Positions 873 to 13,053 are shown, numbered from the stretch's first letter. The stretch is DNA of 57,314 nt from Patescibacteria group bacterium (GCA_038065235.1 JBBTRK010000007.1:1-57314), one strand, 5' to 3'. Numbers and translations: made by a program. The notes: generated by a model from the sequence alone, not told the origin.

Positions 873-2954
873 TTATTCCGGGTGCAGCTGGGCGCGCTTC
901 TGGGCGACCTCTTCAGCGAGGAGTGGGGCAGTGTGGAGCTGTGGGTCGGTCTGCAGGAGGGCTTCGGCAGCGCTCCGGGTCTCTTCCACGAGCTTCTGGT
1001 CAGATAGGCGGGCAACCTTGAAGGGCTGGAAACCGCTCTGGACTTGGCCCCAGAGCTCGCCCGGGCCACGCCGGTTGAGGTCTTCCTCGGCCAGGGCAAA
1101 GCCATCGGTGAGCGTGGTGAGGACATTGAGCCGGTCCAGCGTTTCTTGGTCTGTCGCCTTCGTGGTGAGGTAGCACACGCTGGCTTTGCTACTACGGCCT
1201 ATGCGGCCACGGAATTGGTGCAGCTGGGCCAGGCCGAAGCTCTCCGCACCTTCAATGAGCATGACCGTGGCGTTCGGCACGTCGATGCCAACCTCGACGA
1301 CGGCCGTTGCCACGAGCACGTCGATCGTCCCAGCCGTGAAGTCACTCATGGCTTGCTCTTTCTGCGCGCTCGAGAGCTTGCCGTGCACCAAGCCCACGCA
1401 GATACTTGCCAGCGGTCCGTTCTTGAGTCGTTCGTACTCTTCGGTGGCCGACTTCTTGCCCGTGGGGTCGGTTTCAATGCGCGGGCAGATGACAAAGGCT
1501 TGTTCACCCGCTTGCACGCGTTCTAAAATTATATGGTAGGCAGTGTCGCGGTTCCGGTCATCGAGTACGCGGGTGGTAATGGGTTTCCGTTCCGTGGGGA
1601 GGTGGGGAATGCGGGAGACGGACAAATCACCCCACACGGTGAGCGCGAGTGTGCGCGGGATCGGCGTGGCCGTCAGCGAGAGGAAGTGCGGGATGCTCTG
1701 CGTACCGGCCGAGCGGAGCACCTTGCGCTGCTCTACGCCGAAGCGGTGCTGCTCGTCCACCACCACGAGCGCGAGTTTGGAGAATTCGACCTTGCCGGTG
1801 ATGAGCGTGTGCGTGCCAATAACCAGGTCAACCTCGCCAGCCTTTAAGGTGTGCAGCATTGCAGGTTTGGTGATTGCTTTGTCTGATGTCGAAAACCGAC
1901 GACTGGCTTGGGTGAAGAGCCCGACGCGCGTGCCGAATGGTTTGAGTAGCTTGGTAATCTTCTCGAAGTGTTGCCGCGCCAAGACCTCGGTCGGTGCCAG
2001 GTACGCCGTTTGGCATCCCGCGGCCGCCACGTTGAGAATGGCAATAGCCGCCACGACAGTCTTGCCCGAGCCGACATCACCTTCCACAAGGCGGTTCATG
2101 GGGTGGGGCTTATCCATATCCTGCAAAATGTCCCAGGCCGAACGCTTCTGGCCAGGCGTGAGCGTGAAGGGCAAACGTTGGACAAAGGAAATGGTCTTCT
2201 CTTGGTTGAAAGGTATATGGACGCTGGGTGACTGCTCTAAGGCCGCGCGCTCTTGCTGCACTGCCAGGTGAACCACCAGGAGCTCTTCAAAGCCCAATCG
2301 GTGTCGGCCCAGGCTCACGTCGCCAAAGCTCTTGGGTTCGTGCACAAAGGCTATGGCTTGGCCGAGCGAGAGGAGCTTAGCGTGGCTTACTGTCGAAGCT
2401 GGCAGGCGATCAGGGAGCTGGCTCGCCAGAGGGAGAGCCTGGTGCATGAACATCCGCAGCTGCTTCTGCGTCAGACCGTCGGTGAGCGGGTAGATGGGGA
2501 TGATGCCAGCTGCGTGCAGGGGATTCTCGCGTTTCTCCCAGGTGGGATTTACTAAGGTTGTGCCGAAGTGGTTACTTTCCACTTTGCCTGCGAGCCACAG
2601 CACGTCCCCGGGGTGCAGCACTTTCGCAAGGAATGGTTGGTTGAACCACACGACCTTTATGCTGCCCGTGTCATCGGCGACAATTGCTTCCAACACCAAC
2701 ATGCCCCGACGGCGCGCGGCGCGACGGGAGCTAATGATCTGCAGCTTGCCGCGAATTGAGACGGTGCTGTTCCCGCGGACGTCAATGATGCGTTCCACGC
2801 GGGTGAGGTCTTCGTAGCGGTAGGGCAGGTGCCACAGCAGGTCTTGGATGGTTTCCAAACCTAGTCGCTTTAGTCGGGTGGCTGCTGTCGATCCTACGCC
2901 ACCGAGTACCGAAACAGGTGTAGCCAAAGTGAGCATGGGGTAAGTGTACACCAT
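873..2954 (-). CDS. recG: ATP-dependent DNA helicase RecG
   Basis: ORF 873..2990. N-terminal wedge region (LGGVGSTAATRLKRLGLETIQDLLWHLPYRYEDLT). SF2 motifs GDVGSGKT, DEQHRFG, SLTATPIPRT and QLHQFRGRIGR. Start set at the ATG at 2954, preceded by GAGAGG; 2936 is an alternative. Confidence 0.95.
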   Translation of the reverse strand: MVYTYPMLTLATPVSVLGGVGSTAATRLKRLGLETIQDLLWHLPYRYEDLTRVERIIDVRGNSTVSIRGKLQIISSRRAARRRGMLVLEAIVADDTGSIKVVWFNQPFLAKVLHPGDVLWLAGKVESNHFGTTLVNPTWEKRENPLHAAGIIPIYPLTDGLTQKQLRMFMHQALPLASQLPDRLPASTVSHAKLLSLGQAIAFVHEPKSFGDVSLGRHRLGFEELLVVHLAVQQERAALEQSPSVHIPFNQEKTISFVQRLPFTLTPGQKRSAWDILQDMDKPHPMNRLVEGDVGSGKTVVAAIAILNVAAAGCQTAYLAPTEVLARQHFEKITKLLKPFGTRVGLFTQASRRFSTSDKAITKPAMLHTLKAGEVDLVIGTHTLITGKVEFSKLALVVVDEQHRFGVEQRKVLRSAGTQSIPHFLSLTATPIPRTLALTVWGDLSVSRIPHLPTERKPITTRVLDDRNRDTAYHIILERVQAGEQAFVICPRIETDPTGKKSATEEYERLKNGPLASICVGLVHGKLSSAQKEQAMSDFTAGTIDVLVATAVVEVGIDVPNATVMLIEGAESFGLAQLHQFRGRIGRSSKASVCYLTTKATDQETLDRLNVLTTLTDGFALAEEDLNRRGPGELWGQVQSGFQPFKVARLSDQKLVEETRSAAEALLQTDPQLHTAPLLAEEVAQKRAQLHPE

Positions 2955-3033
2955 GAACCTCTCACTTCGTTCGGGTTCATGGCAGGCCATTCAAAAAAAT
3001 AGCCTACACGGAATGCGACGGTACGAAACGAGC

Positions 3034-3122
3034 TGGCGGTGGGAGGAGGATTCGAACCTCCGAGGGGTATTAGCCCTTCTGGTTTTCAAGACCAGCGCGA
3101 TAGACCACTCCGCCATCCCACC
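3034..3122 (-). tRNA. tRNA-Ser(UGA), type II with long variable arm
   Basis: Reverse complement folds as GGTGGGA/TCCCACC acceptor, CTGGT-CTTGAAA-ACCAG anticodon arm (anticodon TGA), GGAGG-TTCGAAT-CCTCC T arm and encoded CCA. Confidence 0.9.
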
Positions 3123-3168
3123 ATGAAGTTGTTGTTTTTCCGGCGGAGCCGGACCCGGCTTCGCCGGG

Positions 3169-3249
3169 CAAGACTGTCCCTTTCAACCACTCAGGCACGC
3201 CTCCGCAAAATTAACGAACCGCCGCGATCGACCACTCCGCCACCCCACC
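3169..3249 (-). pseudogene. Stack of tRNA 5'-half fragments upstream of tRNA-Ser(UGA)
   Basis: Minus strand 3249..3219 reads GGTGGGGTGGCGGAGTGGTCGATCGCG, matching 25 of the first 27 nt of the intact tRNA. 3206..3169 reads GGAGGCGTGCCTGAGTGGTTGAAAGGGACAGTCTTG, a second type II 5' half that breaks in the anticodon loop. A third CAGTCTTG junction lies near 3264..3271. No T arm is present. Confidence 0.55.
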
Positions 3250-3359
3250 ACCACGCTGCGGGACAAGACTGCCGCCATCGTCCGGGGCGCTCCTGATGAG
3301 TCATCCCTCATCGATAGTATCGTATTTATTGGGGTACTTCAACCTTCTCAAATAAAGCA

Positions 3360-3388
3360 TTGACTCAGGTGCAATAATCATATATAAT
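3360..3388 (+). promoter_or_regulatory. Sigma70-type promoter of the Fic / AEP-helicase pair
   Basis: TTGACT (3360..3365), 17-nt spacer, TATAAT (3383..3388), in an AT-rich stretch 37 nt upstream of the Fic ATG. Confidence 0.6.
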
Positions 3389-3424
3389 CTCATATAGTTA
3401 TAGTATTATCTAATCAATCTACGT

Positions 3425-4477
3425 ATGGATCGACGAGATCAACGAATAGCAAATATCCCCCAACGGTTCTGGTCGCTCATCAACCAGATTGACCACCTGC
3501 AAGGCCAGTGGATTGGCGGAGCGCGGCTCAATCCGCAAGCTTTAGGGAGACTGAAGCGTTCGACGTTGGTAACATCGAGCGGTGCTTCCACGCGCATTGA
3601 AGGCGCAAAACTTTCGGATAGTGACGTGGAGAAACTCATGCGCGGGTTGGCCATAACGAAGTTCGCTGACCGTGATAAGGAAGAGGTGCGGGGGTACTAC
3701 GAACTCCTGGAAAATGTTTTTAATTCCTGGAAACATATTCCCTTCACCGAGAGCACCATCAAGCACTTCCATAAAGAACTATTGAAATACGTCGGCAAGG
3801 ACGTCCGGCATCGCGGTGAGTACAAGAAAGGTGAAAACCGGGTTGAGATGTTTGATGCGCAGGGGAAATCCCTTGGGATCATGTTCGAAACGACGCCAGC
3901 GTATTTGACGCCGAAGCAGATGCAGGAATTGGTGAAATGGACGCAGGTAGCGTTGAAAGACAAGGAGCATCATCCACTCGTTGCCATTGCCAGCTTCATC
4001 GTGGAGTTTCTAGCCATCCACCCATTCCAAGATGGGAACGGTCGGCTGGCACGCATCCTAACTAATCTACTTCTACTCAAGAGTGGGTACGCGTACGTGC
4101 CATACGTATCCCATGAGAAACTTGTCGAAGACAATAAGGCAGAGTACTATTTGGCACTTCGAAAGAGTCAATCGACCTTTACATCGCCAAGGGAAAATAT
4201 TAATAGCTGGCTGGAATTTTTCCTAAATGTTTCGCTCAAGCAAGCTCGGCAGGCGATTGAGCTGTTGTCTCGTGAGAATATCGAGAAGCTTCTTTCACCA
4301 AAGCAGTTACTGGTGTGGAAACATCTTGAACAGGTACCGGAGTCGACACCCGGCGAGATTGTGAAAGCAACTGGCGTGGCTCGGCCAACCGTATCACAAG
4401 CTGTAGACGTACTGTTGCGGCTCAAGCAGGTTGAGCGAATTGGGCAAGGGAGAACGACGAGATATCGGAAAGTATAA
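3425..4477 (+). CDS. Fic family protein (class II, N-terminal inhibitory helix, C-terminal wHTH)
   Basis: Complete Fic motif HPFQDGNGRLAR. STRIEG matches the [ST]xxxE[GN] inhibitory motif. C-terminal wHTH-like segment (GEIVKATGVARPTVSQAVDVLLRLKQVERIGQGRTTRY). Confidence 0.9.
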   Translation: MDRRDQRIANIPQRFWSLINQIDHLQGQWIGGARLNPQALGRLKRSTLVTSSGASTRIEGAKLSDSDVEKLMRGLAITKFADRDKEEVRGYYELLENVFNSWKHIPFTESTIKHFHKELLKYVGKDVRHRGEYKKGENRVEMFDAQGKSLGIMFETTPAYLTPKQMQELVKWTQVALKDKEHHPLVAIASFIVEFLAIHPFQDGNGRLARILTNLLLLKSGYAYVPYVSHEKLVEDNKAEYYLALRKSQSTFTSPRENINSWLEFFLNVSLKQARQAIELLSRENIEKLLSPKQLLVWKHLEQVPESTPGEIVKATGVARPTVSQAVDVLLRLKQVERIGQGRTTRYRKV

Positions 4478-4487
4478 GTACACCCGC

Positions 4488-6692
4488 ATGATAGTTAATA
4501 TCAGCGAGGAACAGCTTCATCTCTATCAGTCACTTTTCCGCGGACGAACGGACGTATATGCGAGGCGTTGGGAAAAGAATGAACGCTCGGGCTATTCCCC
4601 GGCGTATCAATTCGACTGGAATACCTTCCTAGCGCACAAGACTCGTGGCGGAACGATGGCGACTTTCGAACAGAAAACGGCATTACCGCTTACACCTGAC
4701 GTGATCAAGAAGCACCTACTCGGCCAATGTATCGTCGGTATCTACCCGTTGCTCGAAAATAACACTTCATATTTTATCGCTGCTGACTTCGATGGCGAAC
4801 GGGCTCTTGAGGGCGCGAAGAAGCTAATTGAGACATGCGCCGAATTTAAACTTCCGGGATACCTTGAACGATCCCGTTCTGGTCAGGGCACGCATGTTTG
4901 GTTATTCTTTGAAGACGCCTATCTCGCAGTTCGAAGTCGAAGCATCATGCTCGAGTGTATTCGCAGAGCTCTACAATTTTTCGACTTTGATAAAGAGGTG
5001 GCTTTTGATCGGCTTTTCCCAAACCAGGATATGCAAAGCGGAAAAGGATTTGGTAACCTTATCGCTCTTCCATTGCAGGGCGTCTCTCTAGAACAAGGGA
5101 ACACACTTTTCCTAGATCCAGTAACCACAATACCGTATCCGGATCAATGGGCATTCCTCGCCAAAGTAAAACGTATTCCTTCAGCAACATTGGATGCATC
5201 TCTCACACAACTAACGAATAATGTTGTTAGCAAAACCTCAACCGGCACAACCTCGCCACGTGGTAAAATCACGCTCCGCCTCGATTCTGGAATTCATATC
5301 ATGAAATCAACCCTCGACAAAGAAACTGTGAACTTTCTCCGCGAGGAGCTCAACTTCCCGAATCTTGATTATTGGTTAAAGAAGCGACTTGGGAAAAGCG
5401 TGTATCAAACAGAAAAGTTTTTTCGGTTGATTGAAGAAGAAGACGAAGACGTTATCCTGCCACGAGGCTTTCTTTCAGAATTGACTGATCATTTTCGGAC
5501 ACGTGGTATCCCATTCGTCATACAAGACCAGCGACCGTCGTTACCGGAGCTAGAGTTTTCATCGGTGATAAAATTACGACCCACACAATCAGAAGTCATT
5601 GATCGGGTCATGGAGGTCGAACAAGGTGTTATTGTTGCTCCGGCCGGAAGCGGGAAAACCATCATGGGTCTTGAGCTCATCGCGCGCCGCAAACAACCAG
5701 CGCTGATTCTAACGCACCGCAAGCAGATCATGGATCAATGGATTGAGCGTGCTCAGACGTTCCTCGGCATCGCGAAAGCACATGTCGGTCGAATTGATGG
5801 CTTAAAGAAAACTATTGGTGAGAAAGTAACAGTCGCCATGATGCAGAGCCTGGTTCGACAGGATGATTTGAAAGATTTTCAGGATCGTTTTGGCACTATC
5901 ATTGTAGATGAATGTCATCATATCCCAGCCAAAACATTTCGGGAAGTTATTTCACATTTGGATGCGCGTTTCTGCTACGGCCTCACTGCTACACCGAAGC
6001 GCAAGCACAATGACGAAAAACTCATCTACCTTTTTATTGGCGGCATCATTGCGGAACTGACCGAGGAGCCTACTACTCCAGACAACACCAATAGTCACAA
6101 TAATCTGAAACCAGAAAGAATCGTGCATATCCATATAACGGCTCTCGAAATCCCTTTTTCTTTCACGACTGACGACTACCAACTTTTGGCCCGTATCGTT
6201 TCATTTGATCAATCCCGCAATCAGCTTATATTGGATGATATTCGTCATTTGGTGGCAGCTGGAAAGAAAACGTTGGTGCTAAGTGAAAGGAAAGAGCATC
6301 TCGAAGTATTGAACATGTATCTCAAAGGATCCTCGGAGACAATAATTGTTACCGGCGATGATTCTGTTGCATCCCGAAAGAATAAATTTGTACAGATCGT
6401 TTCCGGTCATTATCGGGTTATCTTCGCAACAGGGCAGCTCCTTGGAGAGGGACTGGATCTTCCAGATATTCAAGCTATCGTCCTCGCGTTTCCTCTGGCT
6501 TTTGAAGGAAAACTTACACAATACATCGGACGTATCCGTGGCGCTCAGAAGATAGTATATGATTATCACGATGCGAAAACCCCATTCCTTGATCATCAAT
6601 TCAAAAAACGTAAGAAATTTTACGAAAGAAGTGGATTTACGTTAGCAGGTTCTTACACCAGCAGCGCCCGCGCCAGACGCAAATCCTCATAG
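4488..6692 (+). CDS. Archaeo-eukaryotic primase (Prim-Pol) domain fused to an SF2 (DEAH-type) helicase
   Basis: AEP motifs AADFDG, SRSGQGTHVW and FDRLFPNQD, plus an N-terminal LFRGRTDVYARRWE signature. Helicase motifs APAGSGKT, DECHH, TATP and QYIGRIRG. ATG at 4488 is 10 nt after the Fic stop; the track ORF starts at a TTG at 4431. Confidence 0.85.
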   Translation: MIVNISEEQLHLYQSLFRGRTDVYARRWEKNERSGYSPAYQFDWNTFLAHKTRGGTMATFEQKTALPLTPDVIKKHLLGQCIVGIYPLLENNTSYFIAADFDGERALEGAKKLIETCAEFKLPGYLERSRSGQGTHVWLFFEDAYLAVRSRSIMLECIRRALQFFDFDKEVAFDRLFPNQDMQSGKGFGNLIALPLQGVSLEQGNTLFLDPVTTIPYPDQWAFLAKVKRIPSATLDASLTQLTNNVVSKTSTGTTSPRGKITLRLDSGIHIMKSTLDKETVNFLREELNFPNLDYWLKKRLGKSVYQTEKFFRLIEEEDEDVILPRGFLSELTDHFRTRGIPFVIQDQRPSLPELEFSSVIKLRPTQSEVIDRVMEVEQGVIVAPAGSGKTIMGLELIARRKQPALILTHRKQIMDQWIERAQTFLGIAKAHVGRIDGLKKTIGEKVTVAMMQSLVRQDDLKDFQDRFGTIIVDECHHIPAKTFREVISHLDARFCYGLTATPKRKHNDEKLIYLFIGGIIAELTEEPTTPDNTNSHNNLKPERIVHIHITALEIPFSFTTDDYQLLARIVSFDQSRNQLILDDIRHLVAAGKKTLVLSERKEHLEVLNMYLKGSSETIIVTGDDSVASRKNKFVQIVSGHYRVIFATGQLLGEGLDLPDIQAIVLAFPLAFEGKLTQYIGRIRGAQKIVYDYHDAKTPFLDHQFKKRKKFYERSGFTLAGSYTSSARARRKSS

Positions 6693-8365
6693 GAGTAGGC
6701 ACCGCCCAGTTCGTGAAAGACCGGCGACAGATGCTCATGGCCGAGTTTTTTAAACGTCGCATGTATTTTTGGCAGTGCGTTTTTCAAAGCTGGTGAAACG
6801 TGCGGGTCCAGCTCGGCACGGGTGAGACGCCCGTCAGCGTAGAGCCGAAGGATATGAGAAGTAATGGTGCCCTCGGTTAGCGAGCGGATTTTCGCAATGT
6901 CCGGGATGGATTTGCCGCTTTTCACAAGCTCGAGCGTTATTTGGTAGGTTGAACCGCGGGGTGGTTTTTCATGCTCGCTCATAGCAACACCGCCTTCTGG
7001 TTTTCCGCCACAGGCAATAATAAACTTATGGACACACTCGGTCTGCTCCGCCTTAGACATTGCCGCATGTGTAGTTTGTGCCTTTGCTGAGCGTTGTTTA
7101 AAATCCTGGTCCTGCGCAATAACCTCGGGATGGACTTGAAGCGAGCGCTCATTCCAGCCCAATAGGTGCAGCCCGGCGAGTGACCGAACCCGCGAGAGCG
7201 CAACGTAGCCCTGGCCATACTCGAACGCTTGCGAGAGATCCATCACCGCAGCGTCCAGCGTCATACCCTGGCTCTTGTGGATGGTTATTGCCCAGGCGAG
7301 TCGGATGGGAATTTGAGAAATCCGGGCGAGCACGCGAAGCCCGTCGGTAATTGTCCATTCCATCGGTTCCGTGTATACACGCCGACCGCGAAGCGTCTTC
7401 ACAATTGGCATACCCTCATCGGTAAAATTCTGTACTTCGCCCACTGTGCCATTTACAAAACTCCCATCGGGGTTATTCTTGGTGAACATGATGCGAGCAC
7501 CGACTTTCAGCGAGAGTGTTTCCGGCGAAAGGCAGCCGCGCTTTAATGTGGCTACCAATTTTTCTGATCCACGCGCAATCATACTGTATTGTTTCGCTTT
7601 GCCCGGAATTGACGCCAGTCGTTCTTCATTTATCCGGTCCACATCTGCATTGTGGCTGTATAGCCGAGGCAGATCACGCGGGGCACGTTCAGCATCAACG
7701 CGACGCGCCGTAAGCGACCCGTGGGTGTGGTCATCGGCTGTACCGGCGCGGACGAGTGCGAGTAGTTTTAGGAATTCGGCATCCTCCTGGCGGTGCTGTT
7801 CGGTGAGGTAGCAGACAACTAAATTGGCTGACTCCCATGCTCGTGAACGGAAGGCAAACGGCGCTAATATCTTAGCCGTTGTGTCTTCCTCTAAGTCGAG
7901 TTGCGCACCACCACTTTCCTCGCGTGTAACCACGGGCGGTAATTGAAAGAAGTCACCAACGAGGACAACCTGCAGTCCGCCAAAGGGTGTATCCTGCCGC
8001 CGCAATTTTCGACAAACGGTTTCCGCCATAGAGAGCGTCTGCGCCGAAAGCATAGACACTTCATCAATGATGAGTACACTCGTGTTCCGAACACGCCGTA
8101 CGACGCGTTCGTTATCGGCTAGCGCACTGAGGTCGTGCGATGAAATGGATTTCTTTATGCCGATCCCGCACCACGAATGGATCGTCATCCCGCCGATGTG
8201 GGTAGCCGCAATGCCGGTGGAGGCAGTAATCGCAGGTGTCACGCCGTGCTCGCGCAACCAGCGCACGTAACTGTTAACCGTGTAGGTTTTTCCGCTTCCA
8301 GGCTCACCGGTGAGGAAAACATTGGCGCCAGTTTGGAGAATATCCAGTGCAATCTGTTGTTTCAT
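6653..8365 (-). CDS. PIF1/RecD-like SF1 DNA helicase with C-terminal HTH domain
   Basis: Walker A GEPGSGKT, IIDEVSM, VLVGDFFQLPPV and TIHKSQGMT. C-terminal HTH-like region (IPDIAKIRSLTEGTITSHILRL). Its 3' end overlaps the convergent gene by 40 nt. Confidence 0.9.
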   Translation of the reverse strand: MKQQIALDILQTGANVFLTGEPGSGKTYTVNSYVRWLREHGVTPAITASTGIAATHIGGMTIHSWCGIGIKKSISSHDLSALADNERVVRRVRNTSVLIIDEVSMLSAQTLSMAETVCRKLRRQDTPFGGLQVVLVGDFFQLPPVVTREESGGAQLDLEEDTTAKILAPFAFRSRAWESANLVVCYLTEQHRQEDAEFLKLLALVRAGTADDHTHGSLTARRVDAERAPRDLPRLYSHNADVDRINEERLASIPGKAKQYSMIARGSEKLVATLKRGCLSPETLSLKVGARIMFTKNNPDGSFVNGTVGEVQNFTDEGMPIVKTLRGRRVYTEPMEWTITDGLRVLARISQIPIRLAWAITIHKSQGMTLDAAVMDLSQAFEYGQGYVALSRVRSLAGLHLLGWNERSLQVHPEVIAQDQDFKQRSAKAQTTHAAMSKAEQTECVHKFIIACGGKPEGGVAMSEHEKPPRGSTYQITLELVKSGKSIPDIAKIRSLTEGTITSHILRLYADGRLTRAELDPHVSPALKNALPKIHATFKKLGHEHLSPVFHELGGAYSYEDLRLARALLV

Positions 8366-8522
8366 GGTGACATACTATCACGTATGAAAAAACTTGCTAT
8401 GTTTCGGCTGCACACAGTAAATTTTCCACGTGAAACAGACCCAACGATGACTTAGGGCATGTGGGCCTGCCCGCCATGCCGAGCAAGGCGAGGCAGGCGG
8501 GTCACCCGATACTAAAACCTCT

Positions 8523-8602
8523 TGGCGGAGAGGGAGAGATTCGAACTCTCGATAGGGTTTTAACACCCTATAACAGGTTAGCAACCTGCCGCCTTTCACG
8601 GC
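8523..8602 (-). pseudogene. Truncated duplicate of tRNA-Ser(GCU), 3' ~80 nt without a 5' acceptor strand
   Basis: Shares a 46-nt identical core (anticodon and variable arms) with the intact gene at 8708..8801. It has a different T stem (GAGAG/CTCTC) and acceptor 3' strand (CCTCTCC). No complementary GGAGAGG lies upstream; the D loop is shortened and replaced by a CCGGCGAAGCCGG hairpin. Confidence 0.6.
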
Positions 8603-8627
8603 TTCGCCGGATCCCGCTCCGCGGGAC

Positions 8628-8688
8628 AGCCACCCACCGCCCTTTTGGGCGGGGCCCCGCCGTGTGCGTTCCACGGCGGTGGTCGGCC
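8628..8688. repeat. GC-rich structured repeat (copy 1)
   Basis: AGCCACCCACCGCC...GGCGGGGCCCCGC...GGTGGTCGGCC. The same three blocks occur in the same order at 9058..9105. Confidence 0.65.
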
Positions 8689-8707
8689 TGCTTTATCTAG
8701 CGGCCTG

Positions 8708-8801
8708 TGGCGGAGGGAGTGGGATTCGAACCCACGATAGGGTTTTAACACCCTATAACAGGTTAGCAACCTGCCGCCTTCAGCCACTCGGCCATCCCTC
8801 C
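8708..8801 (-). tRNA. tRNA-Ser(GCU), type II
   Basis: GGAGGGA/TCCCTCC acceptor, GCC-GAGTGGCTGAA-GGC D arm, anticodon loop TTGCTAA (GCT), long variable arm, GTGGG-TTCGAAT-CCCAC T arm and encoded CCA. Confidence 0.9.
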
Positions 8802-8802
8802 C

Positions 8803-9048
8803 TCACAGACCGCTAATTAATTTTTTAAAACTGTTACCACCCTTATATTTTTTTATTTCTCGCTCACGTTTCCAAGCACTGACTTTATCAGGTAATTCTT
8901 CAGTATGGACAACGGTCCACTTGCCACCATTTTTCGTTGAGATGTTTCGACCGCTGTTGTGACGTAGGAGTCGCTCTTGGAGGTCCTCTGTATACCCAAC
9001 GTAATATCGTTGCGTCGAGGAATTTTGGATAATATATACAGTAAACAT
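8803..9048 (-). CDS. GIY-YIG nuclease superfamily protein (YhbQ/UPF0213-like, 81 aa)
   Basis: MFTVYIIQNSSTQRYYVGYTEDLQERLLRHN carries the GIY/YVG core, followed by KREREIKK. ATG at 9048; the upstream part of the track ORF is translated repeat. The stop codon is 1 nt from the tRNA 5' end. Confidence 0.85.
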   Translation of the reverse strand: MFTVYIIQNSSTQRYYVGYTEDLQERLLRHNSGRNISTKNGGKWTVVHTEELPDKVSAWKREREIKKYKGGNSFKKLISGL

Positions 9049-9057
9049 AGCATTTTT

Positions 9058-9105
9058 AGCCACCCACCGCCGGTGGCGGGGCCCCGCTGCAAGCAGTGGT
9101 CGGCC
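9058..9105. repeat. GC-rich structured repeat (copy 2)
   Basis: AGCCACCCACCGCCGGTGGCGGGGCCCCGC...TGGTCGGCC, immediately upstream (minus sense) of the GIY-YIG start. Confidence 0.65.
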
Positions 9106-9157
9106 CACCGCTCCAGGGAATGCCGCAGAAACGTCAACGTGCTATACTTTCCCACGT

Positions 9158-10001: not shown

Positions 10002-11879
10002 ATGGAATTTATATCATTTATCGGTGTAGTAATTATCTTGGTCGTGGTATCGAATCTTCGTGGTCGGGTACAAACACTGGAGAAATATGTAAAAAGTGGC
10101 GCACCCCAGCATATTCCCACACAAGGAAATCCAATTCATCCGAAACAGCTTGTGTCACAGCAACCAGTTTCACCTAGCCCACTGCATGAGTATATTACTC
10201 AGCGATTGCAGCAGGGTGCCAGTAGAGAAGATATTGCACATTCCCTCATGGCGAACGGTTGGCAAGGGGCCGATGTTGAAAGAGCGCTACATGCAGTACT
10301 TCCATCAGCGCAGTTCGGTAAACCCGTCGCCACGCACCCGCTGAGCGGGCCGACCCTTATTGATACGTTCGTCGCGTGGTTGAAAGAAGATTGGTTAATG
10401 AAGCTCGGTGCTCTCCTTTTACTCATCGGGTTCGGTTGGCTTGCATCCTATGCCTTTCTCAATAATTGGATTGGGCCAATGGGCCGCATAGCACTTGGAT
10501 TAGTTGCTGGTGCCCTCTTCATGGTGCTTGGATTTTGGAGAATTCGAAAATACCTTAGCCAGGGGAGCATCTTCCTTGTTCTCGGCTCGACAATAATTTT
10601 ACTCACCATATTCGCCGCTCGTGAAATTTACGATTTCTTCACTCCACTCACTGGTCTCTCAGTAATGTTTCTCAGCACTGCCTTTGTTGCACTTGCGAGC
10701 GTGAAGTACAACAGTCGAGCACTCGCTTTCGTGAGTCTGCTTCTCGCAGGGATTGCACCACTACTCACGAATACACCAACAACAAACTATGTTGGCTTAT
10801 TCGCATATTTGCTCATTGTCATTCTTGGCGCAATTTGGATTGTGGTTCTCACCGGCAAGCATGAACTGACACTGGCTGCGCTCTTACTGGTAACATTCTA
10901 TAGCTTTCCGCATTTCTTCTCTACGACGATCGCAGATAGAGGAATACTACTGTTCTTCGTATACGCATTCGTTGCGGTATTCTTCTTAACCAACACCATA
11001 GGTATTTTGAAGTCGAAAGATAAAGATATTTTTCCTGATCTCGTCACCGCTGCGTGCAATGGGCTCTTCCTACTCGTTTGGATAATGGTAGCCGCACAAG
11101 ACGAATGGAAAAGTATGATACTCGTGGCTTGGATTGTTGTCTTCGCGGTCGGAGCGTACCTCGTCTTTCGATCTACGCATAGGCGAGAACCGTTCTACAT
11201 TTACGTTTGTGTCTGTATTGCGCTGTTGGCTGCGGCAACATCAGCCGAGCTCCAAGGCGCCACGCTCACCATTGCGTACACTCTTGAGAGTGGAATTATT
11301 GCCCTGGTTGCATTTTCAGTATTTCGCGATACCAAGATTACCGAACGAATCAGCTTGCTTCTGGTTGGGCCGGTACTGTTATCTTTTGCTAGTTTTACTG
11401 CGCGCACGTGGTCGACAAGCGTATTGAATAGCGATTTCTTTGTGCTCCTCATTTTGTCGGTAACCTTCTTTGGGCTTGGCTTCGTTTTCTCACGCAGTGT
11501 TCTCAATACTGAAGAGCAGAAGCGCAAACAACTCTCCACGGTCTTGTACATTGTTGGTTCAATATATGCCTACGTGCTGCTCTGGCTGTCTCTCCATGCA
11601 GCACTGACGAATGACAATTCAGCAGTGATGGTTGCACTCGTAGTCTATATTATCATTGGCCTCGTGTGTTATTTCTCAGGCCTAACGAGGAACAGAAAAG
11701 TTCTTCGACTCTATGGGAGTGCGCTTATTGGTTTTGTGGTTGGCAGATTGCTGCTCGTTGATATATGGAAAATGGAGTTGGCAATTCGCATTGTCCTTTT
11801 CTTCCTCATTGGAGCCTTACTGGTGAGCACTGCATTTCTGGGAAAAAAAGAAAACGGTTCACGTAATAACACATTGTAG
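10002..11879 (+). CDS. Polytopic membrane protein, DUF2339-like
   Basis: 625 aa. N-terminal TM helix, then a soluble linker, then about 15 or more hydrophobic helices. Architecture recalled as DUF2339; not verified by search. Confidence 0.75.
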   Translation: MEFISFIGVVIILVVVSNLRGRVQTLEKYVKSGAPQHIPTQGNPIHPKQLVSQQPVSPSPLHEYITQRLQQGASREDIAHSLMANGWQGADVERALHAVLPSAQFGKPVATHPLSGPTLIDTFVAWLKEDWLMKLGALLLLIGFGWLASYAFLNNWIGPMGRIALGLVAGALFMVLGFWRIRKYLSQGSIFLVLGSTIILLTIFAAREIYDFFTPLTGLSVMFLSTAFVALASVKYNSRALAFVSLLLAGIAPLLTNTPTTNYVGLFAYLLIVILGAIWIVVLTGKHELTLAALLLVTFYSFPHFFSTTIADRGILLFFVYAFVAVFFLTNTIGILKSKDKDIFPDLVTAACNGLFLLVWIMVAAQDEWKSMILVAWIVVFAVGAYLVFRSTHRREPFYIYVCVCIALLAAATSAELQGATLTIAYTLESGIIALVAFSVFRDTKITERISLLLVGPVLLSFASFTARTWSTSVLNSDFFVLLILSVTFFGLGFVFSRSVLNTEEQKRKQLSTVLYIVGSIYAYVLLWLSLHAALTNDNSAVMVALVVYIIIGLVCYFSGLTRNRKVLRLYGSALIGFVVGRLLLVDIWKMELAIRIVLFFLIGALLVSTAFLGKKENGSRNNTL

Positions 11880-11883
11880 AATC

Positions 11884-13053
11884 ATGAAACTCAAGACCAT
11901 ATTTTTTGTACTTGTACTCTTTTGTGTCGTCTCAAGTGCAAGTGCACAAGAGTTGTCGCAAAGTACAATTTCTTCGGTTAAGAGCGCGTACCGTTTTCTG
12001 AAAGACGTTCGGAGTATTGCAGTCCGCGTGCCAACGGTTGTTGAGATTCCTATCGTTGACGAATTCATTGAACGTACAGATTTTGCTGTTCTCGATACGA
12101 CTGTCAATACCTTTGAACCACATTTTTTCAAGCAAGAAACGCTGGTAAACACCGTGTTGGTTGAAGTGAGTACGAATCCGATTAGTGCTAGTGCCAGCCG
12201 TCTGAATGACAATGATACTCAGACGTATGCCGATTTTTTGTTGCCCGACGATACACTCGGAGTTGCGCAAATTACCCTCTTAAGCAAAAATTCTATTACG
12301 TCATCTTCCCTCACAACACTGCTTGGTGACAATGTTGCGTTACCAAATTCTATCGAAATTCACGCTTTTGTTGAAGACCAAGACACTATCGTTGTTGCAA
12401 AACGTGGAATGGATCAACAAACCATTCGTTTTCCGCAAACGACATCACCGAGGTGGGTTATTACTTTGCGTTTCAGTCAGCCCCTACGCATTACCGAACT
12501 TCAATTACACCAAGATAACGCAACACTATCCAGCACTCGTACGCTCCGATTTCTGGCACAACCTGCTCACTCGTACCAAATATATTTTGACCCCGATAGA
12601 TCAGTAACCCCTCCAGTTGGGGAAGCGGGTAATTTAGTTTCTTCGAAAGACGTTCTCGTACAGCCAGCTATTACCTCAAAGAGTAACCCACAGTATCGTA
12701 TTGCGGACGTCGATAGTGATGGTATACCCGACATTCGTGATAACTGTGTCTCTGTTGCGAACGCTGATCAGCAAGATACTAATACCAACGGCAGAGGCGA
12801 TGTATGCGACGATTTTGATCAAGATGGGCTAATCAATTCGCAAGATAATTGCCCCAATAATCCAAATCAGTTACAGACAGATACTGACAGCGATGGTATA
12901 GGGGATGTGTGTGATAGCGAAGAAAGCAGAATAACAGAACGCAATACTTGGATCCCGTGGGTTGGGATAGTTTTTGCGGTGTTGGTCGTCATTATTCTCC
13001 TGGTGCTAACGGTAAAATCAACGCATGTATCAAAACAGGGAGATAATGAGTAG
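11884..13053 (+). CDS. Secreted, C-terminally anchored protein with thrombospondin type-3-like Ca-binding repeats
   Basis: Signal peptide (MKLKTIFFVLVLFCVVSSASA). Repeats DSDGIPDIRDNC, DTNTNGRGDVCDDFDQDG and DTDSDGIGDVCD. C-terminal TM helix. Starts 4 nt after the preceding gene. Confidence 0.8.
   Translation: MKLKTIFFVLVLFCVVSSASAQELSQSTISSVKSAYRFLKDVRSIAVRVPTVVEIPIVDEFIERTDFAVLDTTVNTFEPHFFKQETLVNTVLVEVSTNPISASASRLNDNDTQTYADFLLPDDTLGVAQITLLSKNSITSSSLTTLLGDNVALPNSIEIHAFVEDQDTIVVAKRGMDQQTIRFPQTTSPRWVITLRFSQPLRITELQLHQDNATLSSTRTLRFLAQPAHSYQIYFDPDRSVTPPVGEAGNLVSSKDVLVQPAITSKSNPQYRIADVDSDGIPDIRDNCVSVANADQQDTNTNGRGDVCDDFDQDGLINSQDNCPNNPNQLQTDTDSDGIGDVCDSEESRITERNTWIPWVGIVFAVLVVIILLVLTVKSTHVSKQGDNE

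Follow-up and report, generated by a model that had tools for sequence, protein, structure and literature searches.

Two co-oriented genes, the first coding for a Fic enzyme (ORF1, from open reading frame) and the second for a fusion of an archaeo-eukaryotic primase (AEP) with a superfamily 2 (SF2) helicase (ORF2), lie close to a tRNA-Ser gene in a 57,314-nt stretch of DNA from a Patescibacteria group bacterium (GCA_038065235.1 JBBTRK010000007.1:1-57314), hereafter the window. The question raised by this locus is whether the two proteins operate as one system or merely share a promoter and a means of transport. An initial annotation of the window had proposed a horizontally acquired pair, with the AEP-helicase as sensor and the Fic enzyme as effector. 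The explanation that we find on balance probable is that the region at about 3275-6692 is a compact operon, horizontally mobile, in which two conflict genes are joined that often travel together although each is able to work alone.

The ORFs, the motifs, the promoter and the tRNA gene were as first described, and all the motifs could be located. ORF1 matched the Fic family of Pfam (E = 2e-18) and, over nearly its full length, the SoFic model of PADLOC (6.8e-46, residues 45-347). The catalytic loop HPFQDGNGRLAR (residues 199-210, nt 4019-4054) is intact and fits the consensus HxFx(D/E)GNGRxxR. The inhibitory-helix motif STRIEG (S55-xxx-E59-G60; residues 55-60, nt 3587-3604) is N-terminal to the Fic core and fits [ST]xxxE[GN], a motif kept in 74/74 of the Fic relatives checked; the earlier assignment to class II is borne out by these features. 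The best solved relative was the Fido-domain protein PDB 8uqu (1.7e-33), with the solved SoFic chains reaching only 4e-7 at the sequence level, and the NCBIfam SoFic equivalog gave 56.7 bits, far under its cut-off of 550. A C-terminal winged helix-turn-helix (wHTH) had also been proposed. The PADLOC alignment, which extends through residue 347 and covers the C-terminal winged-helix-like region, speaks for it, but the Pfam hits to DIP2311-like_C (26.8 bits) and MarR_2 (26.2 bits) were both under the cut-off of 27. On architecture and PADLOC model, ORF1 is predicted to belong with the class II Fic enzymes of SoFic type, which act as single-gene anti-phage abortive-infection toxins (PMC12249575).

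In ORF2, the described fusion was recovered as PF22548 (TOTE conflict system AEP domain; E = 1e-75, residues 8-236), which is the TOTE AEP domain named in the initial annotation, followed by ResIII, DEAD and Helicase_C in Pfam; the SF2 helicase occupies residues ~361-685 and is closest to XPB/Rad25. The N-terminal motif LFRGRTDVYARRWE (residues 16-29) precedes the AEP motifs AADFDG (DxD, 98-103), SGQGTHVW (sxH, 131-138) and FDRLFPNQD (motif C, 173-181), and the helicase motifs are APAGSGKT (Walker A, 384-391), DECHH (474-478), TATP (500-503) and QYIGRIRG (Arg finger, 678-685). The idea that ORF2 represents an uncharacterised family had to be abandoned. In fact, BLASTP aligned its residues 6-719 to residues 47-777 of IEE, the IS-excision enhancer of E. 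coli O157, with 31% identity over 751 columns (E = 6e-118). The E. coli protein likewise matches PF22548, ResIII and Helicase_C, and its catalytic D142, D144, H178, D216, K451 and R735 align to D100, D102, H136, D174, K390 and R682 of ORF2. On this alignment ORF2 is a full-length and presumably active member of the IEE family, in which all the residues named as catalytic for IEE are kept. IEE has been reported in more than 30% of E. coli assemblies. It is a Mn-dependent, error-prone polymerase that promotes the excision of insertion sequences (IS) and joins 3' overhangs sharing at least 4 bp, a reaction that requires both domains (PMC9943667).

The family of ORF2 is large. At E<=1e-10 it included 7980 of 8000 scored candidate clusters, and at least 588 loci (588/600 candidates) were counted among one-genome-per-species representatives; full-length homologues were present on 114 plasmids. 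A phage origin was rejected: a search of 50,697 phage records gave no full-length homologue, and IMG/VR gave only 5 loci. A listed form of ORF2 starting at TTG 4431 was also discarded as an over-extension, an artefact of ORF listing, because the relatives begin with MIV.ISEEQL.

The adjacency of a Fic gene and an AEP-helicase gene, whose absence from other genomes was to have refuted the initial proposal, is recurrent. From the helicase side 131 loci were collected, and in 108 of them the gene directly upstream could be scanned against Pfam: it was Fic in 18 loci and AbiEii in 13, followed by AAA_14/DUF4143 (5), Schlafen-AlbA_2 (5), HipA (3) and resolvase/recombinase (3), with each remaining family in 5 loci or fewer. 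Fic is the commonest upstream neighbour of the helicase, and it is nearly always co-oriented. When genes within three positions of the helicase were scored with a hidden Markov model built from the Fic neighbours, a Fic was found in 25 loci and was upstream and co-oriented in 20 of these, either directly adjoining (16 loci) or behind one small ORF (4 loci). The gaps in directly adjoining loci were of 3-88 nt with a median of ~20, apart from one of 274. Four Fic architectures occupy this position (350-aa SoFic-like, 310-aa HTH-Fic, 391-aa Fic_N-Fic and ~500-aa), and the Fic partners are distributed over five average-linkage groups of helicases, the window's own group having them in 6/7 loci. 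The two closest helicases in public assemblies (76% identity) have a Fic gene 7-11 nt upstream as well.

The same order was seen from the Fic side. In 80 loci anchored on Fic proteins 62-86% identical to that of the window, 73 had enough downstream sequence; the helicase follows Fic in 12 of them, and in all 12 it is directly downstream. No other neighbour family occurs in more than 3 loci of this set. In the Fic tree, every pair falls inside one subclade (13/29 leaves), with at least 5 gains or losses. The order Fic then helicase recurs, chiefly in Patescibacteria.

The recurrence could have a trivial origin, if abundant accessory genes gather at tRNA-linked hot spots and the operon order is meaningless. 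SoFic and AbiE, exactly the top neighbours found here, are among the commonest defence genes of groundwater prokaryotes (PMC12259885); moreover, the arms and direct-repeat flanks of the pairs recur around solo Fic genes, and the contexts of the helicase on plasmids are very varied. Mere gathering is however at variance with the geometry of the loci. As an internal control, other genes of these islands were examined for the upstream co-oriented slot and turned out to be scattered (HsdR 1/12, tyrosine integrase 1/6, AAA_14 1/6), against 20/25 for Fic and the fixed position of the helicase in 12/12 helicase-bearing Fic loci. Also, within SoFic-like pairs the identity to the window falls jointly, from 85 to 67% for Fic and from 76 to 45% for the helicase, which is consistent with long joint inheritance. 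Over all pairs and all Fic types the mirror-tree style Pearson r is a weak 0.36, since helicases that resemble each other are accompanied by Fic proteins of different families. We regard unrelated neighbours as a rather improbable explanation.

Tight and conserved order, in ~20 loci, five helicase clades and four Fic architectures, would also be expected of an obligate two-component defence, in which the AEP-helicase senses foreign nucleic acid and releases or activates Fic, so that an AMPylated host target aborts the infection. The helicase is the only recurrent partner of the Fic clade, the Pfam family of its AEP domain takes its name from a conflict system, and the swappable upstream toxins recall the effector modularity of known defence systems. 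The proposed sensor-effector pair does not agree, though, with the distribution of its halves: 61/73 (~84%) of the close Fic homologues and ~80% of the helicases have no partner, and the nearest relatives of the window Fic (79-86% identity) have no helicase beside them. Inhibitory and catalytic motifs are identical in paired and solo Fic proteins, SoFic is protective alone (PMC12249575) and IEE works without Fic in E. coli. Furthermore, the slot upstream of the helicase is filled in other lineages by AbiEi/AbiEii modules and elsewhere by HipA, HigBA or an NYN-domain gene. AbiEi/AbiEii and HigBA are complete toxin-antitoxin pairs with unrelated targets. No obvious target is common to the upstream toxins, which makes it seem unlikely that a specific biochemical circuit links toxin and helicase; each gene being found also solo, a two-part function of Fic and helicase is conjectural. 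An obligate system is, in our judgement, unlikely.

Some additional arrangements were observed around the helicase family. On an Acinetobacter baumannii plasmid (NZ_CP038501.1; L217:4129-7268, related loci being designated by L and a number), HigB and its HTH partner lie directly upstream of the IEE-family gene, with a gap of 26 nt; the same slot is taken by the NYN-domain gene in Aeromonas and by a resolvase, in a Tn3-like context, in Pantoea. Some relatives have a Cys-rich ORF of 84-93 aa, Pfam-less and absent from the window, between Fic and helicase (L001:7750-8004, L005:7723-8004, L109:7722-7979). The same ORF adjoins the helicase without a Fic in L003 (L003:1886-2167), L030 and L039, and it may be an accessory of the helicase or an AS1-like anti-toxin. 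In Bacteroidota and Ignavibacteriales (L063, L065, L069, L112), a co-oriented Schlafen-AlbA_2 / HATPase_c_4 gene starts 15-17 nt after the helicase stop, so that the family has a second partner in close operonic arrangement. A PIF1 plus HTH_40 gene, which in the window converges on ORF2, adjoins the AEP-helicase in two more Patescibacteria loci (L037:121-1881 and L049:1070-2794); three geometries are thus represented, upstream co-oriented, downstream co-oriented and convergent, and this neighbourhood could be due to chance, synteny or a link.

The claim that the pair has its own promoter held up. The scan of 2900-8900 returned TTGACT-17-TATAAT as the sole 11/12 match, the remaining six matches scoring 9/12, approximately the chance expectation, and neither a promoter nor a terminator-like site was found between ORF1 and ORF2. 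The promoter and the CTCATATAG block that follows it are nearly unchanged across 14 related loci, both paired and solo, and the TAATCATATATAATCTCATATAG block is near-invariant in the same 14 loci. Since the promoter is kept in both kinds of locus, it belongs to Fic. The conserved block around its -10 element is a plausible putative operator, likely recognised by the predicted DNA-binding domain of the Fic protein. An inverted repeat of 17 nt (88%) connects the promoter/operator block (3374-3390) with the ORF2 codons for the conserved KIVYDYH (6550-6566); it was judged to be probably a chance match, because its second arm is constrained by conserved coding sequence.

The positions of these elements and of their immediate neighbours are collected in the table below.

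Features of the Fic/polymerase-helicase locus in the window (positions counted from the first nucleotide of the 57,314-nt stretch)
Feature	Position	Strand	Description	Evidence
tRNA-Ser(UGA)	3034..3122	-	left neighbour of the islet, 5' end toward the cassette	ARAGORN; Rfam tRNA, 62 bits
Copy of tRNA-Ser(UGA) 5' part	3218..3250		33 nt, 88%	repeat search
Left arm of the Fic cassette	3275..3359	+	diverged remnant (GTCCGGGGCGCTCC ... CGATAGTATCGTATTTATTGGGG ... TCAACC)	alignment with L134, L135, L001, L136, L139
Promoter region	3360..3400	+	-35 TTGACT 3360-3365, 17-nt spacer, -10 TATAAT 3383-3388	
Near-invariant block	3375-3400		TAATCATATATAATCTCATATAGTTA, around the -10	14-locus alignment
ORF1	3425..4477	+	SoFic-type class II Fic AMPylase (predicted), 350 aa; stop 10 nt before the ORF2 ATG	
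ORF2	4488..6692	+	IEE-family polymerase-helicase (predicted), 734 aa, ATG 4488	
Overlap of ORF2 and PIF1	6653..6692		convergent 3' ends, 40 nt	
PIF1 plus HTH_40 helicase gene	6653-8365	-	convergent to ORF2	

Two compositional and structural points of the initial annotation stood only in part. Its spot counts of 23, 27, 38 and 37 G or C out of 60 were exact, and the islet is indeed low in GC (Fic 50.0%, ORF2 45.9%, as compared to recG 60.2%, PIF1 54.4% and the window 52.1%), its value being the 5th lowest of 181 intervals of 3.3 kb. The AT-richness is real yet modest, because 10002-13053 is equally low. The GC of that stretch is 44-47%, and it contains a gene for a DUF2339 membrane protein and an ORF of 389 aa. 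As to the stack of tRNA fragments beside tRNA-Ser(UGA), one 33-nt copy was confirmed, and it is a rearrangement scar at the tRNA; the remaining 3123-3217 resembles a tRNA by eye only.

Horizontal acquisition at a tRNA gene was supported by the relatives, which are found at many tRNAs and have direct repeats and conserved cassette arms. The tRNA adjoining the paired cassettes varies with the genome (tRNA-Trp, Gln, Ser, Arg, His or Gly); in L001 and L109 the cassette lies between two diverged copies of one tRNA, and in L008, L034, L071, L084, L101 and L103 it is flanked by direct repeats of 17-85 nt. Relatives from different genomes have a common left arm, composed of GAGTCGC-CTCCGATAA, a tRNA-3'-like fragment (TGGCGGAG...ATTCGAACC) and GGGTCGC. 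In the window a diverged remnant is all that is left of this arm, the tRNA-3'-like fragment and GGGTCGC of the relatives being located at the equivalent of 3275-3359. In L001, L002 and L034, GGGTCGC-TCCGATAA and then a true tRNA 3' end come after the helicase stop. No recombinase was found between the repeats in the inspected relatives or in the window cassette, and where some loci have recombinases these sit outside the arms. Arms and repeats fit a site-specific integration of the ordinary kind into the 3' ends of tRNA genes, by a recombinase that acted in trans or was lost.

A unit made of GGGTCGC-(N)TCCGATAA-N~10 and a tRNA 3' end was noted at the cassette borders (L001:10180-10205, L002:6340-6375, L034:5364-5421) and in left arms; found across genomes and with different tRNAs, it is a candidate recombination site. 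Solo SoFic-type genes were seen to be flanked by direct repeats of 28-79 nt, for instance in L139 (L139:1599-1698 / 3061-3219) and L195 (L195:4789-4867 / 6221-6299), and also in L211, L215 and L191. These repeat-flanked loci carry the left arm of the paired cassette, and some of their repeats have the form of terminator-like hairpins, of which the locus has further copies at other places. Judging from these borders, the solo SoFic genes of Patescibacteria look like single-gene mobile cassettes without a recombinase. Further traces are present on the other side of PIF1 in the window. A degenerate tandem second copy of tRNA-Ser(GCU) (8524-8610, minus strand) lies at 8708-8802 on the same strand, 98 nt downstream of the 3' end; it has 92% identity over 73 nt, was detected with a lowered ARAGORN threshold and a sub-threshold Rfam score, and may be the scar of an earlier insertion or excision. 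The L034 cassette sits at a tRNA-Ser(GCU). Beside tRNA-Ser(GCU) the window has a small GIY-YIG gene (8803-9108, minus strand), a homologue of which is found beside the tRNA-Ser genes of L139, and small genes similar to it occur near tRNAs in L001 and L005.

Repeat-bounded cassettes without an internal recombinase raise the idea that the IEE-like enzyme is itself the mobility engine of an integrase-less cassette, which it would insert or excise at tRNA trailers through end joining. IEE does promote IS excision, and it joins 3' overhangs with at least 4 bp in common (PMC9943667). Repeats of 27-85 nt are nevertheless not microhomologies, and the tRNA-3'-like fragment of the left arm fits site-specific integration by a recombinase in trans. 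A need of the helicase for mobility is also argued against by the solo Fic cassettes, because these have the same arms and repeats and no helicase. Of the explanations considered here, a helicase-driven cassette appears the least credible.

The E. coli homologue called for a further comparison. The initial annotation had named a replication or integrase context as evidence against its proposal, and such a context was found around E. coli IEE, which has an integrase nearby and follows AlpA, DUF3987/YfjI and a Gp2/Rep-like gene; it is not, however, the main context in the window's clade. The pair might be the remnant of a replication module from a plasmid or integrative element, with the AEP-helicase as replicase and Fic as addiction toxin. 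AEP-helicase fusions replicate some plasmids (PMC11724360), the 114 plasmids with full-length homologues would be in line with this role, and a serine-recombinase-like gene (L134) or a resolvase-type recombinase (L147) is found upstream of Fic. Nonetheless, neither the cassette of the window nor those of the repeat-bounded relatives were found to contain an integrase, Rep, partition or transfer gene, and the window neighbours of the pair are recG, tRNAs, PIF1, GIY-YIG, a Pfam-less ORF and DUF2339. The helicase is of the XPB-like SF2 type and not of the replicative hexameric type, purified IEE behaves as an error-prone polymerase with end-joining activity (PMC9943667), and the carrier plasmids have their own replicons. 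A replication remnant is thus very doubtful.

The compact operon of two self-sufficient conflict genes is the reading that we retain. The Fic protein would be an auto-inhibited toxin, serving abortive infection or addiction, which may also repress its own promoter, and the polymerase-helicase would be expressed from that promoter. The latter may act on DNA ends or on intermediates of mobile DNA, like IEE in microhomology-mediated end joining in vitro. The coupling of the two genes would consist of co-transcription and co-inheritance, that is toxin-gated expression and stabilisation of the cassette, with no obligate sensor-effector circuit. More generally, the helicase gene would ride on the promoters of toxins and be stabilised by them; the upstream toxins probably share a self-contained, autoregulated operon character.

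Several points weigh against this reading. The high proportion of solo Fic genes, which include the nearest relatives, and of partnerless helicases has been mentioned. Part of the neighbour signal, led by Fic and AbiEii, could be a base rate, since SoFic, AbiE and restriction-modification systems are the most abundant defence families reported in groundwater prokaryotes (PMC12259885). Because the sampled loci are mutually related, their counts do not stand for separate events, and the clearly independent associations of Fic are about four. In the window itself no flanking direct repeat was found, and the native right arm, which in relatives consists of a direct repeat and a tRNA, is gone. In fact, ORF2 exceeds its relatives by 11 residues, and its last ~11 residues are the antisense of the conserved PIF1 C-terminus: the right end of the cassette is a deletion, with ORF2 running 11 codons into PIF1 antisense. 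No empty site, that is an uninterrupted tRNA-Ser/PIF1 junction, was found among the closest PIF1 relatives, and none is demonstrable there because no further gene of the window is found next to PIF1 in these relatives (76-77% identity). Finally, it is from relatives that both the autoregulation through the wHTH and the part played by the helicase are inferred.

The locus is of interest for the native role of the IEE family, on which the pair offers a handle. Relatives of IEE follow toxin genes, SoFic and AbiE among them, with a constant geometry, and in ultra-small bacteria of the candidate phyla radiation (CPR) the Fic version appears at tRNA genes as a discrete cassette. The pair is a concrete two-gene construct with which one may ask whether the IEE family is a factor against mobile elements or phages, and whether toxin operons gate it. 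In addition, SoFic-type genes of Patescibacteria are flagged as probable single-gene cassettes that are mobile, have conserved arms and do not encode a recombinase. A bolder, and in our opinion improbable, generalisation would make IEE-family enzymes the constant half of modular two-part conflict systems in several phyla. A self-contained toxin module using nucleoside triphosphates (SoFic-type Fic, AbiEi/AbiEii, HipA or HigBA), placed directly upstream, would either gate the DNA-end-processing enzyme or be triggered by it, and the Fic version would spread between tRNA loci of Patescibacteria. If this were true, the native role of IEE would go beyond IS excision.

Among known proteins, IEE of E. 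coli O157:H7 (ECs_1305 / Z1568) is the closest in design to ORF2, having the same two-domain architecture over the whole length and the same AEP-TOTE Pfam domain. Both proteins keep the DxD, the SxxxQGxH motif, the Asp of motif C, the Walker A Lys, the DExH and the Arg finger, whereas ORF2 is ~50 residues shorter at the N-terminus. The contexts differ too: ORF2 lies behind Fic in a Patescibacteria-like genome, and IEE belongs to the SpLE1 island, where it follows AlpA, DUF3987 and a Rep-like gene. ORF1 has in common with SoFic of Shewanella and E. coli the HxFx(D/E)GNGRxxR loop, the [ST]xxxE[GN] motif and the C-terminal domain covered by the PADLOC model. It differs in that it is not followed by an AS1-like small antitoxin ORF, the helicase starting 10 nt on (PMC12249575).

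As cited in PMC12458937, TOTE conflict systems are made of TPR, OB, TBP and Effector (Aravind et al., 2022), and ORF2 resembles them in its AEP domain, to which Pfam has given their name. No TPR-OB (cold-shock domain) gene was found near the pair in the window or in the 25 listed upstream families of the 108 relatives, a list beside which there are 55 rarer families. The same holds for genes with a TBP domain, the downstream neighbours of the helicase having been clustered only, with no large unexplained cluster. Canonical TOTE membership was rejected, because two of the defining neighbours were not found. The CRISPR-associated primase-polymerases (CAPP; PDB 7NQD, 7NQF) have a distantly related AEP domain (PDB match 2e-7; PADLOC 'PrimPol, CAS-associated' 6.7e-60), but in ORF2 this domain is fused to an SF2 helicase, and neither a CRISPR array nor a cas gene was found in 1-12 kb of the window, where ORFs, repeats and matches to RNA families were inspected. 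With polymerase theta, the eukaryotic helicase-polymerase of microhomology-mediated end joining, there is an analogy only through IEE, in that helicase and polymerase are parts of one protein and act together when ends are joined (PMC9943667, PMC11724360); polymerase theta has a family A fold and not an AEP one, shows the opposite domain order and is not a member of the family.

Toxin-antitoxin operons with cargo (AbiEi/AbiEii, HigBA, HipBA) provide a further parallel, as a self-contained and probably autoregulated toxin module lies directly upstream of the same helicase family. The window differs in that toxin and inhibitor belong to one polypeptide, as in class II Fic proteins, and there is no separate antitoxin gene. 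No published Fic/IEE or Fic/AEP-helicase system was found in the literature searched, outside which the primary description of TOTE lies. The Fic/IEE-like pairing is a recurrent, mobile and presumably co-transcribed combination of two already known conflict genes.

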